Origin: Ruditapes philippinarum
Taxonomy: Eukaryota
Direction: 5' to 3'
DNA: 64,000 bases
Assembly: GCF_026571515.1 (NCBI RefSeq)
Contig: NW_026858332.1
Span: forward strand, 1 to 64,000
In this document: one piece after another, positions 27,951-37,692 of the stretch
How the letters are laid out: each line of letters begins with the position of its first letter
How positions within the stretch are numbered: the stretch's first letter is position 1
The notes under the pieces: generated by a model
What the model saw: only the letters and a program-made list of their open reading frames with translations
What the model was told of the DNA's origin: nothing
Database searches by the model: none
Position numbers and translations under genes: made by a program

Positions 27951-29999
27951 TCTTATTGGAGAGGTCATCAGACCTCTCCACAGTGCTGGCGGCATCCATT
28001 TTTGCGTATCTGATTGTAGTGAATGAATCTCATTTAAAGCGTAAAATCATTAGGAGCAGTCTACAAAAATTGTTATGCTCATGCTCCGCTTCAAAATACG
28101 ACTTAACTTAAACGAAAAATTAACATCGAAGTGAACAAATCGGTACATAAAAAAAATCGGAAAATATCTTTTACGTTACTTAGCGCTACGTGGATGTTTC
28201 ATTCCGTTTTAATCTTTTAAAATGTATTTATCGATTACGGTATTGTTTTATGAGTAGCGTTTTACCATTTCATGTTCCAATGAATAGTAACAGTGAACAT
28301 TATAGCTACAATAACACCATGCACTATTATATGACCGAGTGAACAGTGTACTTGAACCGGTATGACTAAGTAACGCAACAGATATTTTTTGGCGCAAATG
28401 GCACAAAATTTATTCAAGTTTAATTTTCTTCAAATATTGTGGTTGGAGGCATGCAGCTTTATATACTGTTTATTCCAATCAAATGATATAAACATATTTT
28501 ATGTAAATCTGGGACTTAAAGAGTATAAATCTTTATCTTATGAATGATTTTAATAAATTTATCAACAGTAAAATTATATCGATTCAATTATTATATTACT
28601 CAAAAAGTTGTAACATAGAATGTCTGTGTTATTTAATGCACATGAATAATGTACGTAAACAGAATAAAATGTTCCAGAACTATATATTATTTTGCTATTT
28701 TAAGTAGGATTTTATCTGTTTAGCAATGACTTTGTGCATGCGCCACTCGCTTTAAGGCATCTTATTGCCATTTTTATTTCACACAACCATTTTAGAAGTA
28801 TTCTCTTTTTTGCTAAATCCAAACAATAATTTTTGGCATCAGATATGTAGCTTTATACACTTTAAAATTGTTTGATTAACATACTCTATGTCCGTTTTGG
28901 AAAATGTAGAGGAAATGTTTCCATATACTTAACAAACCTTTAACCGAAAATCTGCTTATTGAATTTTAAAAGAAACTTTTATTTTGAAGTATACTTTTAT
29001 ATATACTGTATAGCAATTATTTTAAATTTAGATTGATGGCATAACATATATTGTTCCTAGCTTTGTAGAAAAAGTATCTCTAATGCGCCAAGAAAAAAAA
29101 ATCAATTTCTCTTGCATATAATCTTTCAAAACATTAAAAAAATGAGGTGTAAAACAAACTTTCATTATAATACTATATTCAATATATATAATAAATTCTA
29201 TTTTGTTACATTATTGTAATTTATAATCATTCACTCCGCTTTTTATGCAAAAATATCCCAAATATTTTCGAATTAAACAAATTTTCCACAGCTGCAAAAG
29301 ACCACTCGCATGTTTCTTTTTAAAACAGCAAACTTGTTTCATATTTGTAATAAACTTTTCGTGAATATGAATTTGTACTTTTTGTGTTTATGTGATAATT
29401 GTCAATTGACAAACGTGTGCACGGAAAGTTAGGGGAACGGATTTTTTAAATACGGAAAGTACGGTTTACAATTTTACAGACTTTATTCTGCACCAATGCC
29501 AACCGGAAATAGAATTAAATTCAATTTAAAGAAAATTTCTCCGTAAAAATCACGGTTTTTCAGGTAAATACAAAGTATTTATTTTATCCGTTATTGTAAT
29601 TGAATTGTGTTACATATGTTTGTGTATATTTCTCAAGGTGACATTAAAAGTTTCGGTCTTGGCTAAGCTTTTATAATTAGGACTAGACTAGTAGTCGGAT
29701 AACAATGAATTCTTTATTTTCCAATATCTGTCTATCTTCCATTAATGCAAACCCCTCGCGGGGACATAGACATGACCCTAGACTTCAGAGACAGCTGAGA
29801 GATACAAGGGAACCCGGGAACCAGTCACTAGCTCTTATTGAATAGACCCCTTTTTTCTACAAAAAGAGTGCTCAACAAAAATGGTTCAATGTATCAGAAA
29901 TTTATCGTATGTAGAAAGATTAAATATTCTGGAAATTCCTACGTTGGCTTACAGAAGATTTAGAGGTGATATCATACAAGTATGGAAATTATTAAATGG

Positions 30000-30216
30000 T
30001 GTTGTGAATGCAGGAAATGATTTAGTGGTCCTAGACCTACCGGACTGCATTCGCATGCGCGACGGTTTTCGCGGGACTGGAAAGTGCCCGGATAGTTCTA
30101 GGATTGAGTGAATTGAGTTCTGCGTTGGCTGGCGAAGTGTCAACATCAAGATCAAGCTTTGGTAAGCTCCCGGCCTGTTTTCCCTTCTTTAGGCTATGTT
30201 TTAAGGAAATACAACA
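30000..30216 (+). repeat. 5' LTR
   Basis: TGTTGTGAATGCAGG...GGAAATACAACA, a direct repeat of 36361-36577. Confidence 0.95.
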
Positions 30217-30217
30217 T

Positions 30218-30235
30218 TGGCGACGAGGATGGGAT
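30218..30235 (+). promoter_or_regulatory. Primer-binding site complementary to the 3' end of tRNA-Ser(GCT)
   Basis: TGGCGACGAGGATGGGAT lies 1 nt after the LTR and is the reverse complement of ...ATCCCATCCTCGTCG-CCA, the 3' end of animal tRNA-Ser(GCU) as recalled. Confidence 0.85.
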
Positions 30236-31559
30236 GCAAGCAATGAAGTATTGGCACTATCAGGTGGAATTGATTGAAGCGATACTGCCCAAGTTGGAAG
30301 AACGACATGTACTGGTTATTCATTGTCGTGGAATAGAGGGTGACTGTGGTACAGAAGCATATTTACTTCTTCTACATGTTCTAAAGAAGTACGTTAGATC
30401 ACGTCACCCTATACATCTACATTGTTTCACAGGTGACCAGTCTGTGCTCAAGAAATGGTTGGAGACATTTCCAAGGACGTACTTTGGCTTCACTAGTCTG
30501 GTGGATTCCTTTAATCGTGACCAGATAGCAGCGCTACGAGAAATTGAAGAGTCTCGTCTGCTTCTTGAGTAGCAACCCCACCTGATAAGCCATCGGTGTT
30601 CAGAATTTGCCAAAAAATCGATACTATGTTCAGAAAATTGTTTTTTAAACAACTTATTTTTCTATTGACAAAAATAAAACAAATATATAATTAATCAGTA
30701 TTAAATTATCTTTCATATGAAATAAAATTCATTATTCATTCATAAAATGTTTTTTAAACATTATCTGTTAAAGTTTACATTCAGCGGTATTTTCGGCCGA
30801 TTTTACGTTTATTGACTGCTGCCACGCGCTGGTCACATGTAGGGTGCATGACCTTTTTCGCGGGTCATTTGTTGCTAATTAATATTCATGAAATTTTACA
30901 ACCAATCAGAATTAATTTTGCACTTCATCCCGGAAATTTCGTTTTGCAAATATGTTTACTAACAAAAAAGTTACGACGATCCGAAGTTTTAGATAATTTA
31001 CATAAAAATTATCGGTAAGTATCAAAAAACGAATATTGTTCTAGAAAATGTAAACAATGATCTTTAAAATGATACATAAATCATGAAAATCCTTTAAGGA
31101 TAAAGTACCCGCATTTATGATTGAACATAGCGAGTTACAGAAAATCAACAGCCCATCGAGAATTGTTTACGTCCGCCATCTTGATTTTACCGACGTGGTG
31201 AAATCAAATTATTTTGATCATCGATTTATCTTATGTACATCAATCACAAAATAATATTTTTGTTAGTAATTGTTTTTAATAATATTAAATTTTATTTTCA
31301 TGAAATTATTTCTTTTATTATGGCGTATTTCTTTCTTAAATCGCCAAAAAATGACTCGGCGGGTACCTGCTCAATATCGGCCTGTGTAAAAAAAAAATGT
31401 TGCTGTTTTTCTTTTGCCGATGTTTTAAATTTGTTAATATATCACTCTTTATGATAAAAAAAATCAGTCCTTGTGCAAAATAATTTATATCTGCGCTTAA
31501 TTGAAGTCAGTATTGGCTTGAAATGAGCCTCAATAAGGCTAAAAACCTATCACTGCCAG

Positions 31560-31740
31560 AAGGCCATTTCACAGGAGATTGACATTCTATCAATAATTGA
31601 AAAATATAAGCATATAATTAAAAAATAACGGCAAATGTACCCCTCTATAGTATTATTTATAGTATAGAGGGGTACATTTGCCGTTATATTTTAATAATTT
31701 GCTTATACTGTTATAGAATGTCAATTTCCAGTGGCCTATT
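31560..31740. repeat. Long hairpin with a perfect 25-bp stem (31625-31649 / 31663-31687) and imperfect outer arms
   Basis: ATAACGGCAAATGTACCCCTCTATA / TATAGAGGGGTACATTTGCCGTTAT. Outer pairs ATTGACATTCTAT / ATAGAATGTCAAT and AGGCCA / TGGCCT. Confidence 0.9.
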
Positions 31741-31964
31741 GCAGGAAAATGCTGTATTATTTTTTATGGCTACATTACAAAACTTTAGAAACATACAAGG
31801 AAATGCGAACATGTTTTATGCTTTGTGCAATTATGTTACATGTGACGTTCGTTGTTGTTTTATTGTCTGTTTACTGAACCTTGCATTTTTTTTCCAGATA
31901 ACTGAAATACTGATCAGCCAGAGTAAAACCATTCAATTGACGTGCCTTCACATCAGATACTATT

Positions 31965-34900
31965 ATGGAAGCAGACAATATTGGACCATTTTGTAAACAA
32001 ATTGGTTTACATATCAACTCACTTGATGAAATAAATCCTTTGAGAAACAGTCACATATTAAATGGAGTTATTTTGGAACTGTTTTCGCATTTTAAGAACT
32101 GCACAAAAATTGTTGATGTGTTGATACGTTTAAATCCCGATTTGTCAGCTGTCAATATAAATACATTGAAATCACGAATAAATTGTGTCATTGAAATAAA
32201 AAAAAAATTGGTATCGAAGAAAAAAGTAAAGGGCATTACTTCTCTAGAAGACTTAAAAAGTCAAGTTTTTGAGAGTACAAGTAACAAGAAGTTGAATCAA
32301 ACACCCCGCAAAAATGCACAGAACTCTTGTGATGATAAATCTCCAAATCGCCCCAATAAACACATGCACAGTCCCTGTCAAAGTAAAAGTGAAAAAAGCC
32401 ACATTGAAGAAGGAAATGAACCCCCCCTTACCAAAGACAATATACCCCAATATGATAAAGAGAAAACCCCTATACATGAGAAAGTCACAAGTCCCTGTAG
32501 TAAAAGTGAAAGAAAAGCCCTTAACTTGTTTGACTATGAAATCCAGAAAAAGAACAAAAACCTTCTAGGTATTCTTCGTGAAGTTGAAACTGCAAAAGAA
32601 CAGTTACAAACCCTCAATAATAGAATAGGACATTATTCTGTTCGAAACGTAAATAAGCGTGATGAGACAGCAAAGAAAAACTTGCATTTGCTCCGTGATG
32701 CTCAAAGACAGCTTCTGCGGCAGAAAAAACAAAGTGATAATGAAAATGAAATAAGTGCCCAGCTAAATGAGAAAGTGGAATCCTTAAAAATCAATTCCAA
32801 TGTGGAAATAGATCAGCATCAGCAAAAAAAAGTAAATGCCCAAAAGACAGCTAGCTATTATAAAGTTAAAGCTTCAAAGTTAAGAGAAAAACTGAAGAGT
32901 GATAATTATGAACCTGTAAAAACACTAAAATCCAAACTCGCTGAAAAAGATGCAAAAATAGATGAACTTGAATCCAATTTACTTCTGCCTTAAGAAAAAA
33001 TAAAAAAAAGAAAAATTGAAAACTCGGGGCAAAGGATGGAACTTTTAAACAATACGTTCGGTTTTTGGTGAAAATTTTAAGGGGTTTTAAAAGGGTTGCT
33101 TTAAAAAAAAACCCCCTACGGTTTTAAAAGAACTTTTTCTAAAATTTTCATGGCTTTAGGTTTTAAAAAAATTTTCCACTTTTAAAAATTAAAACACAAG
33201 TATATTTTTTCCCAAAAAAAATTTATCGAGAAGGCCCAATTTTTTCCCAAAAAAACATTTATTTCTAAAAAGCTGTTTTTGAGGCAGAGAACTGGCAATT
33301 AAACCGTTTGGGCCCCACACTTAAAAAAGAAAAATTCTGGGCACATCTTTTTCACTTTTGTCCTTCTGGAGAAAATATTTTCCAGTTTGGGGAATTTTGA
33401 GGTGCGCAAAACTGCGAAACAATTTAAAAAATTTGTAACAAAAAATCATGTGACTGAACTTGCAAACTTAAATCAAAAAAATTCAAAAACAACGGAAGAT
33501 CAATTTGTAAAAGAAACGCTGGGTAAGTTAGCTTTTACAATGAGCGACAGGGCTAGCAATGAAAAAAAGGCTGACAGATTACTGGACGAATGGCACGACT
33601 CCATTTTAGGCAATTGTGATGACAGACAACAAGATGAAGTGCTGCATTTTCATTGTATGGCCCATGTGCTTCTAGGTTTTCACAGGTACATTTGTAAGGA
33701 TGTGAAAGATCTGGAAGCTAAACTATGTGAGGAAGATGCTCTAGGGCGTGATAAACTGTCGGTTTTTTCGAACTGGCGAACAAAAGGAACTGTAGTGGAA
33801 AGAGTTCTGTTGACAACTTCAGATGTTTTTGGCCCATCAGGAGACCATCATGGTGTTAGAGATTTGTGGGAAGCACACTGTGCTGTTAATGGTATAAAGT
33901 CCATTATAGGCAATTACAAAGACAATCGATTTAATGCCTTATTCCAAACTGCTGCAGAAATATTCCTTCACAGAGCCCATTTCATACATGTCCTAGAAAC
34001 TGTAAAGTCCCCAAATTTGAAATTAAAATCAGTTATTGCCGACCTGAAGGATGATCGTATTTTTGCATCAATTCAATGCCTTGGCCTTTTCTACTTGAGA
34101 GTGACAGGTCCATATTGGGCTCTTATTACGAGCTCCGACATCCCTTATCTTGAACTTTTCAAACAAGTGTCCAAATTGAAAGAGTACCTTACAGTACTAG
34201 AAAATGATCCTGCTGTCATTCTGTGTGATAGTATGTGGAAAGATGTACATGTGCAGCATAAAAAGACTTTATCCAACTCCCTTAACGAACTAAATGAAAA
34301 CAACCGGTCCTCCATGTTTGACTTTGTTAAACTTGTTGCATGTGCAATGAATAAAACAATCAACAAACAGTTAATTGACTTTATAGATGACGGGCAGTTT
34401 TCCAAAACACCAACAAAACAAGACTTGCAAAGAACTTTCTTTGCTCACAATACAAACTTGGGATGCGAGCATCATTTTGGAGACTTGGACAGTAGTCAGC
34501 GTCGACGACCAAATGCTACAATGCACCATCACTCATCGGTGCAACTTATAAAAAGAAATCGGACAAAGTTAATTGAATGGTTGACAGAAAAAACACAAGA
34601 AGAAAAAGAAGTTCTGTTTAAATCTGCAAGATCTGGTGGTAAGCGTTTACGGGAAAAACACAGGACAGAAGAAAAAAATGTATTAATAGAAATAAATGAA
34701 GAAATGACAAAAAAACCCGAACTTAAAAACAAACGTAAAGCTAAAAGTGACTTGAATCTGAAAAATGGGAAAACAAGAAGAACTAATGTTGAACTATGTA
34801 AAAATGATTTTATTAAAGAACTTCCAACCTTTGAACAAGTAAATCAAAATGACTATATTGTTGTTGCCTACCAGGACGGCTGGTATCCAGGCATAGTGCT

Positions 34901-35121
34901 TGAAATTAAAACAGACAAAATGATTGTTGTTAAATTCATGATGCCTTCTAGGAAAGCAAATCATTTCTGCTGGCCTAGTAGAGAAGAGAACTGTTGAATT
35001 TATGTTTGTTTTAAAAACAGGGTTTATTCCAGACTGTATGAATTCTGGCAGAATGTGGTATATCGAAGACTGTGAAAAAATTGAAAAATTGTTCAAAAAG
35101 TTTAAGAAATTATATTTCTGA
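31965..35121 (+). CDS. Transposase (hAT-like DDE), broken in the assembly: ORF 31965-32993, garbled ~32990-33430, ORF 33387-34997, frameshifted tail to TGA at 35119-35121
   Basis: Coiled-coil N-terminal part; MSDRASNE (second D), FHCMAHVL (CxxH), NRFNALF, TNLGCEHHFGDLD (catalytic E); C-terminal YIVVAYQDGWYPGIV...FCWP domain. The tail TVEFMFVLKTGFIPDCMNSGRMWYIEDCEKIEKLFKKFKKLYF* continues in a shifted frame. Confidence 0.75.
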
Positions 35122-36346
35122 AAAATGATGACATGCAATTGTTTATACTGTAAAGCACTTGTTATTGCTAATGTAAATGCTAAAGCAAATGTTAATGATA
35201 ATTGTTAATGTTTATACCTGTTAAAGTTTTTCATTCTGTTGTTGTATATTGTTTATTAACATATGTAGATAATTGAAAAATAAATCGAGAAAAAATATTG
35301 TGAAATTTTATGTATGCTTTGCTTACTGTATAAGATGCAGTTAATTGACCACTAAAAATATAGTACTTTTAATCAGTTAGTTATAAAGAGTAATTGCTAA
35401 TCTAATTATATTCCAAATTTCATAAGAATATCTCAAAAAGTAAAAAGGTTATGGCATTTTAAGTGCGGAATTAGTCGTAAACATAATTATTTCGGTTCCG
35501 TCGCGGCGCGCTGTCTTTCTATTAAAAAAGCATATAAAATAATTCTGAAAAACTACGCGTTTTTTAAGATCTTAAGAAGTCATAACTTTTTTATTTATTA
35601 AGATATTTTAAAAAAGAAAACTGTTCTGGAAAGCTTATGATGAGCTCTATGTAATGAAATAAACTATTTATTTAAACAATTAGGTGAAAAAAATGATGTG
35701 TTGTTGCTATCTTGAGTCCGATGCACCATATTTTCCCGGTAGGGGATCCAGAGTATCGTCACCTGGACAACTGTATAGAGCAGCGAATGCAGTGGCTCAC
35801 CGTCTTCAAACCTCGCCTGAAAGGATTCTGGAGATCACAGTCGCAAACGCCCTGTGTCTCTATGAAGGGCAGTATCAGTAAAAACCAGCAGGAAACTGGT
35901 CGAACTTCTAGTTCACCAGTCTAAAGTTGATAATGCATCCAAGTAAAGTGCTGGTTGGATTCCTAGTTTTTCAGTAAAAGCGTCATTGTTATATTCAGTT
36001 GAAACTTCTAGTTCATCTGAGAAATGATCCAGATTGCTCCAGGTATACCACAACAAAAATAACCTCAATACAGATCAAGAGTCCAGTGTGCTTTGATCCG
36101 AGTATCCAATACATCCAGGCTGGTGGTTGTGAAAAATGAAGTTCCAGGTGGCTTCTAGCCTTTGAGAAGCTTTACAGCAACGCCAGTGTACCAAAAGGAC
36201 TTCTAGTCCTTCCTCTACAGCCTACTTATTTAGGGTAAGTTAAAGCCGCGATGTGATATTAATTCACAATTAAGGAAGTAAACGAGCTTCTAGTTCTTTA
36301 CTGATGCATTCACAGCATTACTCCCAAGACCGAAGCCTTCATTCAT

Positions 36347-36360
36347 AAAGTTGGGGGGAG
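36347..36360 (+). promoter_or_regulatory. Polypurine tract
   Basis: AAAGTTGGGGGGAG directly abuts the TG of the 3' LTR. Confidence 0.85.
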
Positions 36361-36577
36361 TGTTGTGAATGCAGGAAATGATGCAGTGGTCCTAGACCTA
36401 CCGGACTGCATGCGCATGCGCGACGGTTTTCAAGGGACTGGAAAGTGCCCGGATAGTTCTAGGATTGAGTGAATTGAGTTCTGCGTTGGCTGGCGAAGTG
36501 TCAACATCAAGATCAAGCTTTGGTAAGCTTCCGGCCTGTTTTTCCTTTTTTAGGCTATGTTTTAAGGAAATACAACA
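36361..36577 (+). repeat. 3' LTR
   Basis: Direct repeat of 30000-30216, followed by the TSD ATGG. Confidence 0.95.
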
Positions 36578-36606
36578 ATGGGAAGGAAGATATAGATTAC
36601 AATGTA

Positions 36607-37692
36607 TTTTTAGCTCGACTATTCGATAAGAATAAGTAGAGCTATTGCAGTCACCCGAGCGTCGGCGTCGGCGTAACCACTTATGTTAAAGTTTTTGTAA
36701 TAGTTCAAATATTTTCAAAGTCCATTGACATATGGCTTTGAAACTTTGCACACTTGTTCACCATCATGACCCCAACCTGTAGACAGGAGGAGGTAACTCT
36801 ATCAAGCATTTTGACAGAATTATGCCCCTTTTTCGACTTAGAATTTACGTTTAAGTTTTTTGTAATAGTTCAAATATTTTCAAAGTCCATTGACATATGG
36901 CTTTGAAACTTTGCACACTTGTTCACCATCATGACCCCAACCTGTAGACAGGAGGAGGTAACTCTATCAAGTATTTTGACAGAATTATGCCCCTTTTTCG
37001 ACTTAGAATTTACGTTAAAGTTTTTGTAATAGTTCAAATATTTTCAAAGTCCATTGACATATGGCTTTGAAACTTTGCACACTTGTTCACCATCATGACC
37101 CCAACCTGTAGACAGGAGGAGGTAACTCTATCAAGCATTTTGACAGAATTATGCCCCTTTTTCGACTTAGAATTTCCGTTAAAGTTTTTGTAATAGTTCA
37201 AATATTTTCAAAGTCCATAGACATATGGCTTTGAAACTTTGCACACTTGTTCAACATCATGACCCCAACCTGTAGACAGCAGGAGGTAACTCTATTAAGC
37301 ATTTTGACAGAATTATGCCCCTTTTTCGACTTAGAATTTACGTTAAAGTTTTTGTAATAGTTCAAATATTTTCAAAGTCCATTGACATATGGCTTTGAAA
37401 CTTTGCACACTTGTTCAACATCATGACCCCAACCTGTAAACAGGAGGAGGTAACTCTATCAAGCATTTTGACAGAATTATGCCCCTTTTTGGACTTAGAA
37501 TTTACGTTAAAGTTTTTGTAATAGTTCAAATATTTTCAAAGTCCATTGACATATGGCTTTGAAACTTTGCACACTTGTTCACCATCATGACCCCAACCTG
37601 TAAACAGGAGGAGGTAACTGTATCAGGCATTTTTTTTTACTATCAAGCACTAAGAATAGTCGAGCATGCTGTCCTACCGACAGCTCTTGTTT
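36607..37692 (+). mobile_element. HINE (Helentron-type) with near-identical 164-bp tandem array (~5.7 units)
   Basis: subTIRs GCTCGACTATTC / GAATAGTCGAGC, (GGCGTC)n, units at 36685, 36849, 37014, 37178, 37342 and 37506, 3' hairpin GCTGTC-CTACC-GACAGC, end CTTGTT. Inserted in a T run of the LINE. Confidence 0.88.

Follow-up and report, generated by a model that had tools for sequence, protein, structure and literature searches.

Why would a retroelement carry a TatD nuclease? The question is raised by a locus of Ruditapes philippinarum in the first 64,000 nucleotides of contig NW_026858332.1 (assembly GCF_026571515.1); this whole stretch is called the window below. At positions 30000-36577 of the forward strand, a pair of long terminal repeats (LTRs) encloses a piece of a TatD-family gene. 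The original prediction, made from the letters alone, contained two claims: that the locus derives by deletion from an autonomous, Gypsy-type family in which TatD occupies an env-like open reading frame (ORF) at the 3′ side, and that TatD is the only cargo of this type of element. The first was borne out by a full-length relative in the same genome. The second had to be given up, as the window element is a single copy with a unique deletion junction and half an active site. The finding is the clade of elements behind the window copy; the window copy itself is a dead fragment.

For this clade we put forward, tentatively, a composite reading that we consider possible and somewhat doubtful as a whole: an undescribed ancient Gypsy clade, present in molluscs, brachiopods, echinoderms and hemichordates, may have acquired TATDN2, an R-loop RNase, in a single capture and retained it as an accessory gene that is expressed by splicing and has its own zinc-finger-like targeting domain.

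A Gypsy-type parent family in the same genome

A genome search with the 217-bp LTR, proposed along with the original prediction, gave 40 matches (40 of 40 candidates scored), recovered full-length elements and found TatD in other copies. At G000:C8938:215993-227200 an LTR pair with a CTTG duplication delimits 11.2 kb. Its domains are, in order, gag (Retrotrans_gag, CCHC), protease (PR), reverse transcriptase (RT), RNase H (RH), integrase (INT) ending in a PHD finger, and a third ORF, ORF3; pol is divided between frames. ORF3 is a 777-codon stop-to-stop frame with a complete TatD domain at residues 504-772 (PF01026, 111.6 bits, above the curated cut-off), and the pieces found in the window are 98.8% identical to its 3′ end.

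The features of Ty3/Gypsy elements, namely an LTR pair, a primer-binding site (PBS), a polypurine tract, a short target-site duplication and gag followed by PR-RT-RH-INT, were found among family copies and sister families; 4-bp duplications flank five of six testable LTR pairs of the window's family. Sister families L209-L211 (G000:C11716, C15849, C13980) have other primer sites, which we take to resemble tRNA-Leu and another tRNA-Ser isoacceptor. At least eight further LTR pairs of the window's family, that is, most of its pairs, carry one common deletion of integrase and ORF3.

Among the side observations is an amplified subfamily of ~6.9 kb (L031-L038 and L044, at G000:C1604, C5858, C5568, C4232, C549, C15540, C541, C10880 and C8103), whose members retain gag, protease, RT and RNase H and have all lost integrase and ORF3 through one shared deletion. 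The gag of this subfamily opens with a helix-hairpin-helix motif (HHH_3), which was also seen in the sea-urchin gene model P0369.

Linkage of TatD to integrase-PHD

The TatD domain has 97 matches in the genome, many of them in open frames of 700-870 codons with 35-45% identity. At 15 of 24 fetched TatD loci, TatD is preceded by pol domains in the same orientation, and at three more it lies between LTR-type repeats; an LTR pair together with all domains is present at four loci (C8938, C11716, C15849 and C2675).

The linkage was also examined in reverse. A search with the integrase tail, in which 150 of 859 candidates were scored, gave 147 matches; inspection by eye separated 45 close from 93 distant loci. 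TatD was found within 5 kb downstream at 31 of the 45 close INT-PHD loci versus none of the 93 distant Gypsy integrases. Twelve of the 14 close loci lacking TatD were fetched: in 11, ORF3 begins directly after the PHD finger, and one is truncated before it. Neither ORF3 nor TatD was matched at any of eight distant integrase controls. Trees of INT and TatD from nine to ten own copies are concordant at supported splits. The architecture gag / PR-RT-RH-INT-PHD / ORF3-TatD is near certain. Between families, RT and integrase share 60-80% identity and TatD 34-41%. In several LTR pairs the matched part shows 98-100% identity, which points to recent activity of the elements; many family copies are broken.

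TatD also follows a PHD-less integrase in a second, more distant Gypsy lineage (L118:3410-6205, from G000:C8694, and L115, from G000:C10854). In the C8694 lineage a cysteine/histidine motif stands between integrase and TatD; TatD of this type has a cysteine-rich insert after GEVGLD and, together with Mytilus P0099, branches basally in the element clade. Separately, distant Gypsy elements without TatD (L246:991-2913, L241, L247) have post-integrase ORFs starting with C2H2-type zinc fingers; one such ORF, compared with the ORF3 profile, had no significant similarity to it.

Origin and range of the element TatD

The host TATDN2 gene lies at G000:C420:169113-173811, has at least five exons and is 83-98% identical to Mercenaria TATDN2. 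Element TatDs share ~30-33% identity with it, are intronless and lie within LTR elements. All 17 own element TatDs score 118-131 bits with host TATDN2 versus 66-107 bits with prokaryote-type sets, and the motif [VINC][FYW][CS]xP is present in 154 of 189 element-type proteins, in 25 of 25 host proteins and in none of 67 prokaryote-type proteins.

In a careful tree of 51 rows, the 21 element rows form one clade (support 100/99) nested among eukaryotic TATDN2-like rows; this clade falls outside the bilaterian host-gene clade (97/89), and prokaryote-type TatDs are set apart by a 100/100 branch. Larger quick trees (one of 124 rows) recover the same element clade; for one quick tree of element TatDs, a length filter removed two of the five outgroup rows planned. 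A tree with host TATDN1, TATDN2, TATDN3 and bacterial TatD had been proposed with the original prediction: its TATDN2 and bacterial parts place the element TatDs with TATDN2-like proteins, apart from bacterial ones, and TATDN1 and TATDN3 are absent from it. Profile scores of the element TatDs to TATDN1 and TATDN3 are weaker. That a capture took place is near certain, and we infer that it was one ancient event involving a eukaryotic TATDN2-like gene. Recent capture of a host mRNA was rejected, as the host gene is multi-exon and only ~30% identical, and the element clade is not part of that of the bilaterian host genes.

Acquisition from a bacterium, such as a gill symbiont, is very improbable. 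It could be read from four matches (P0009, P0052, P0057 and P0061) labelled as TatD of Thiodiazotropha or Sedimenticola metagenome-assembled genomes (MAGs), and from the best PDB matches, which are bacterial YcfH/TatD, the solved chains listed including no TATDN2. The sequences of the four are those of element-type ORF3, however; they have the element-specific middle domain described below and fall inside the element clade, and are therefore likely to be animal DNA in symbiont bins, while prokaryote-type TatDs stay on their own side of the 100/100 branch.

The element profile matched at least 150 clusters at 50% identity, all with E <1e-91, and the middle domain is present in 103 of 127 new ones. 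Element-type proteins are named from Saccostrea, Pinctada, Mytilus, Dreissena and Mercenaria; 30 clusters were looked up, and the 11 with a species name come from Ostrea, Pinctada, Haliotis, Lingula, Lytechinus, Strongylocentrotus, Diadema, Anneissia and Ptychodera (P0067, identical to an own locus, was excluded from the range). Fused gene models with gag (Strongylocentrotus purpuratus cluster P0369/P0372) or protease (Mytilus edulis P0073) were found. A metagenome search for related loci gave, among the matches listed, only prokaryote-type TatD of 24-32% identity; searches of genome contigs and viral contigs for such loci gave no match, and a search for longer proteins gave eight matches, none with a pol domain. 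These data suggest that many annotated TatD, TATDN2 and YcfH genes of bivalves, abalone and sea urchins, and some 'bacterial' TatDs of symbiont MAGs, are retrotransposon genes; if the proposed reading is true, the same would apply to many models named 'TatD', 'YcfH-like' or 'TATDN2' in marine invertebrate genomes.

Anatomy and constraint of ORF3

ORF3 consists of a low-complexity arm rich in Ser, Arg, Lys and Pro, with basic runs, then a zinc-finger-like helical domain, then a complete TatD domain; it lies outside the Gag-Pol frames. The middle domain, of ~140 residues, combines C-x4-C..H-x4-H with helices and ends in NS..hW. ORF3 had no match to a fusion glycoprotein, and no env-like membrane segment was seen in it. 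A signal peptide was considered and rejected, the hydrophobic start being a translated splice-acceptor tract.

The catalytic residues are well kept. In 17 own-genome TatD frames, HxH, the Glu of GEIGLD and the Glu of ESD are present in all 17, the His of IHCR and the last Asp in 16 each; among 192 aligned rows (191 database proteins) catalytic positions are retained in 168-180. By motif placement, via E91/E201/D203 of Escherichia coli, the Glu/Glu/Asp of ORF3 equal E593/E705/D707 of human TATDN2 (available text of PMC10711561). The predicted structure of the middle and TatD domains has a mean pLDDT (predicted local distance difference test) of 95, with all top fold matches being TatD (Z 27.7), and overlays TatD structures including DNA-bound 4pe8 (Z 26.8). 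The middle domain modelled alone reached a weak pLDDT of 59, with no Foldseek match at E 0.001 and with Atlas matches below 0.9.

Ratios of non-synonymous to synonymous change (dN/dS) between copies, a comparison suggested with the original prediction, were obtained for TatD in nine pairs: 0.05, 0.10, 0.13, 0.15, 0.23 (saturated), 0.24, 0.28, 0.36 and 0.77. The TatD domain is under purifying selection, with dN/dS below 0.4 (0.05-0.36) in eight of nine pairs.

These results largely refute the idea that TatD is a passenger, whether a one-off capture of host mRNA or a neutral hitch-hiker, and we give it hardly any credence. The original prediction had itself named such a capture, and likewise a failure to match PF01026, among the outcomes that would refute it; other copies carry TatD, the host TATDN is distinct (~30%) and PF01026 matches. 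A passenger would fit the loss of ORF3 from the commonest derivative of the window's family and the many broken copies. It fits poorly with a multi-exon host TATDN2 of ~30% identity, purifying selection, an element-specific partner domain, relatives in so many clusters at E <1e-91, and the concordance of INT and TatD trees at supported splits.

Predicted expression of ORF3

All seven full ORF3 starts, from six families, have a pyrimidine tract and CAG 0-3 nt upstream of the ATG. In run X7, 7,599 bases are missing from one contig, in which an AAG/GT site 400 nt past the 5′ LTR is joined exactly to the CAG of ORF3 (GT-AG). Contigs of runs X1, X3 and X7 terminate at or near these two sites. As judged from these sequence signals, ORF3 is likely to be made from a spliced subgenomic RNA, in the manner of env.

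Short LTR-bounded copies of ORF3 (C2853, C3068, C3623) were considered as copies of spliced RNA and rejected as such; they are products of deletion or recombination. Run X24 is filed as RNA-Seq; its reads include many chimeras with GATC junctions and show no strand bias, a pattern resembling that of a DNA library made by proximity ligation.

Predicted function of ORF3

Enzymes in the env position are known from the Juno and Vesta LTR retrotransposons of bdelloid rotifers, where ORF3 codes for a DEDDy exonuclease or a GDSL esterase, messages are spliced and activity was not shown (available text of PMC5408684). The clam elements resemble them in having a post-pol, env-position enzyme with intact catalytic residues, the cargo of Juno/Vesta including a 3′-5′ exonuclease. 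They differ in fold and origin, a TIM-barrel TatD here versus a DnaQ-like DEDDy domain there, and in that TatD is here characteristic of a single clade, whose relatives span several phyla, is encoded in a frame of 740-870 codons together with a zinc-finger-like domain, and is associated with integrase-PHD. TatD has no occurrence in the available text of PMC5408684.

Animal TATDN2 (available text of PMC10711561 and PMC12709183) shares with ORF3 the long low-complexity arm, the C-terminal TatD barrel, all catalytic residues and a strand-2 motif of AVFCxP type. In contrast to TATDN2, the element gene is intronless, lies inside LTR elements, has ~33% identity to it and adds the C-x4-C..H-x4-H helical domain, found in no named host TATDN2 of the set. 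Ty3/Gypsy elements with an env-like ORF3 and planarian Burro (available text of PMC6431247) likewise combine PR-RT-RH-INT, a tRNA primer and a 4-bp duplication with an extra ORF of host-derived domains. Unlike env-like ORF3s, the ORF3 described here has no fusion glycoprotein match, and the extra domains of Burro are related to apoptosis and ubiquitin, those here to a TatD nuclease. No description of TatD or TATDN2 in retroelements was found in the literature, a negative to be read with Repbase, Dfam, supplements and subscription journals in mind, any of which could hold such families; among main texts on mollusc or annelid LTR elements or accessory domains, TatD is absent from PMC6238403, PMC8220671 and PMC6338049, and that of PMC6238403 also has no mention of an ORF or PHD.

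What the enzyme acts on can be approached through its nearest cellular relative. Human TATDN2 cuts the RNA of R-loops and hairpin RNA, has little DNase activity and does not cut plain RNA-DNA hybrids (available text of PMC10711561); medaka tatdn2 protects germ cells from R-loop damage (available text of PMC12709183). By this analogy ORF3 is quite possibly, though not quite probably, an accessory nuclease that works on RNA in the nucleus, where it would remove R-loops or structured RNA that the element produces. A nuclear location would fit the basic runs of the arm and the lack of an env-like membrane segment, and an RNA substrate would fit the activity of human TATDN2. Removal of R-loops or leftover RNA-DNA might lower germ-cell DNA damage and host detection, so that the element would be transcribed and tolerated.

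The original prediction had favoured DNA as the substrate. As a DNA 3′-5′ exonuclease or apurinic/apyrimidinic endonuclease, ORF3 would repair or trim cDNA, or clear cytosolic cDNA from cGAS/STING-type sensing in the manner of TREX1. Bacterial TatD and human TATDN1/3 do have DNA activities (cited in the available text of PMC10711561), the full metal site is retained in family ORF3, and the model overlays a DNA-bound TatD structure, as described above. We nevertheless regard these roles as rather unlikely; they are weakened by the scant DNase activity of TATDN2 (PMC10711561, available text). ORF3 also lies outside the Gag-Pol frames and therefore lacks a built-in route into particles, the same elements have RNase H and integrase of their own, and 93 other Gypsy integrase loci do without TatD.

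A counter-defence role, in which ORF3 would degrade double-stranded or hairpin RNA of the element, or nascent transcripts bound by small RNAs, and thereby blunt PIWI-interacting RNA (piRNA) or RNA interference (RNAi) pathways or double-stranded RNA sensing, appears unlikely. The predicted separate, env-like expression of ORF3 would suit it, as would the faster divergence of TatD than of pol between families; cutting of hairpin RNA by human TATDN2 (available text of PMC10711561) and the silencing role raised for DEDDy ORF3s by Rodriguez et al. (available text of PMC5408684) point the same way. However, pairwise dN/dS gives no sign of positive selection, and the substrate range overlaps with that of an R-loop or structured-RNA nuclease, purpose being the chief difference.

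Several observations weigh against an R-loop nuclease captured once and expressed from a spliced RNA. The splice joint comes from one contig, whose shorter arm spans 28 letters, in a run (X7) only guessed to be RNA, and there are no leader-to-ORF3 joints among 2517 raw reads of run X24, yet X24 resembles ligated DNA. Neither a pol domain nor an LTR pair was present in the fetched stretch at six of the 24 TatD loci, and for other genomes the fused gene models are the sole evidence of linkage to gag or pol. The trees contain no TATDN1 or TATDN3; the dN/dS pair at 0.77 rests on seven changes, and one other pair is saturated. Most LTR pairs of the window's family have lost ORF3, so it is not required in cis. 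At ~33% identity its substrate could differ from that of TATDN2, other TatD proteins cutting DNA. A role within reverse transcription is doubtful because human TATDN2 spares plain RNA-DNA hybrids (available text of PMC10711561).

If an RNA-directed accessory nuclease is the right reading, a retroelement would bring its own R-loop or structured-RNA nuclease to evade germ-line genome surveillance, and the handling of R-loops or structured RNA would become a possible field of conflict between retroelements and the germ line. The few known enzymatic ORF3s are joined by one with a nuclease fold that we did not find reported as retroelement cargo, encoded by a clade-defining gene under selection, and the role of env-position enzymes for LTR elements becomes testable on one soluble protein.

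Structure and origin of the window copy

The signals of the original prediction are all in place. On the forward strand the 5′ LTR (30000-30216) and the 3′ LTR (36361-36577), identified by sequence comparison and, for the 5′ LTR, the genome's set of LTR matches, are 217 bp long with TG..CA ends and 96.3% identical (eight mismatches over 217 bp). The target-site duplication ATGG abuts the 5′ LTR (29996-29999) and is mirrored on the outer side of the 3′ LTR (36578-36581). An 18-nt PBS (30218-30235) is perfectly complementary to a tRNA-Ser(GCT) of this genome, over the 15 nt at the 3′ end of its gene followed by CCA, and sequence inspection places the polypurine tract GGGGGGAG (36353-36360) just 5′ of the 3′ LTR.

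Comparison with C8938 leaves five bases of no assignment (30236-30240) at the junction of a ~9.8-kb deletion. They are followed by part 1 of the ORF3 remnant (30241-30569; IHCR and HCFTG motifs, ending LLE), which is interrupted, as had been predicted, by a later insertion of a multi-copy DNA transposon (30570-35709; TAGCAAC..GTTGCTA ends). Part 2 (35717-35881) runs from SDAPY through the stop codon; both parts have 98.8% identity to the C8938 ORF3. The 3′ untranslated region (35882-36352) is common to other family copies at 92-99% identity. Outside the insert the internal sequence amounts to ~1.0 kb.

In the PF01026 search proposed earlier both fragments matched, part 1 with E 7.6e-10 (profile positions 122-201) and part 2 with E 1.3e-4 (positions 200-252; alone, under the curated cut-off). 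The IHCR, HCFTG and ESDAPY motifs of the earlier domain call are present. The domain is not whole: the remnant comprises the last 163 codons, starting at residue 615 of the 777-codon parent frame, and covers no more of the barrel than its C-terminal part, past DSHFH (504, the HxH) and GEIGLD (605). Since half of the metal site is gone, the window TatD is predicted to be inactive even without the transposon insert, and the window copy is likely a deleted, inactive copy of a Gypsy-type LTR retrotransposon.

The deletion removed gag, pol and most of ORF3. Its junction was seen in one of 29 genome matches, the window itself (counts are lower bounds). A non-autonomous family like terminal-repeat retrotransposons in miniature (TRIM) requires several copies with the same internal structure and was rejected. 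The PBS measures 13 nt in 11 of 12 PBS-bearing LTRs examined and 18 nt in the window only, where it is followed by the five bases of no assignment and then by ORF3. The only source of the five extra tRNA-complementary bases is copying of the primer; this agrees with a plus-strand transfer that went wrong, onto an incomplete minus strand, and indicates tRNA-Ser(GCT) as the primer in use. In the likely course of events, 18 nt copied from the tRNA primer would have been joined, in one faulty plus-strand transfer, to minus-strand DNA extended only into ORF3; normal integration and, later, insertion of the DNA transposon would have followed. Retroviral deletions by faulty plus-strand transfer at the PBS were reportedly described by Pulsinelli and Temin in 1991. 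Those deletions are said to resemble the window copy in starting directly after the tRNA-copied PBS, with a few extra bases and otherwise normal integration; in the window, unlike there, the tRNA origin is visible, because 18 nt were copied and the parent has a shorter PBS.

The transposon insert and its surroundings

The insert measures 5,140 bp, has 7-bp terminal repeats and is flanked by the 7-bp duplication TCTTGAG (30563-30569 and 35710-35716); both of its ends recur in other genome copies. Its transposase-like frames (31941-32993 and 33303-34997) had no Pfam or PDB match at E <0.02; their D, CxxH and E motifs presumably resemble those of hAT transposases. The stretch 33000-33300 between the frames is homopolymer-rich, with possible assembly errors, and a 54-nt inverted repeat with a 5-nt loop lies at 31600-31712.

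The LTR element itself sits within a frame (29842-29999 and 36579-36639) that continues across the ATGG duplication. We take this frame to resemble the C-terminus of an RT from a CR1/L2-type long interspersed nuclear element (LINE); it had no match in Pfam. Close 3′ of the 3′ LTR, a tandem array with a period of 164 bp and at least five to six copies occupies 36686-37642.

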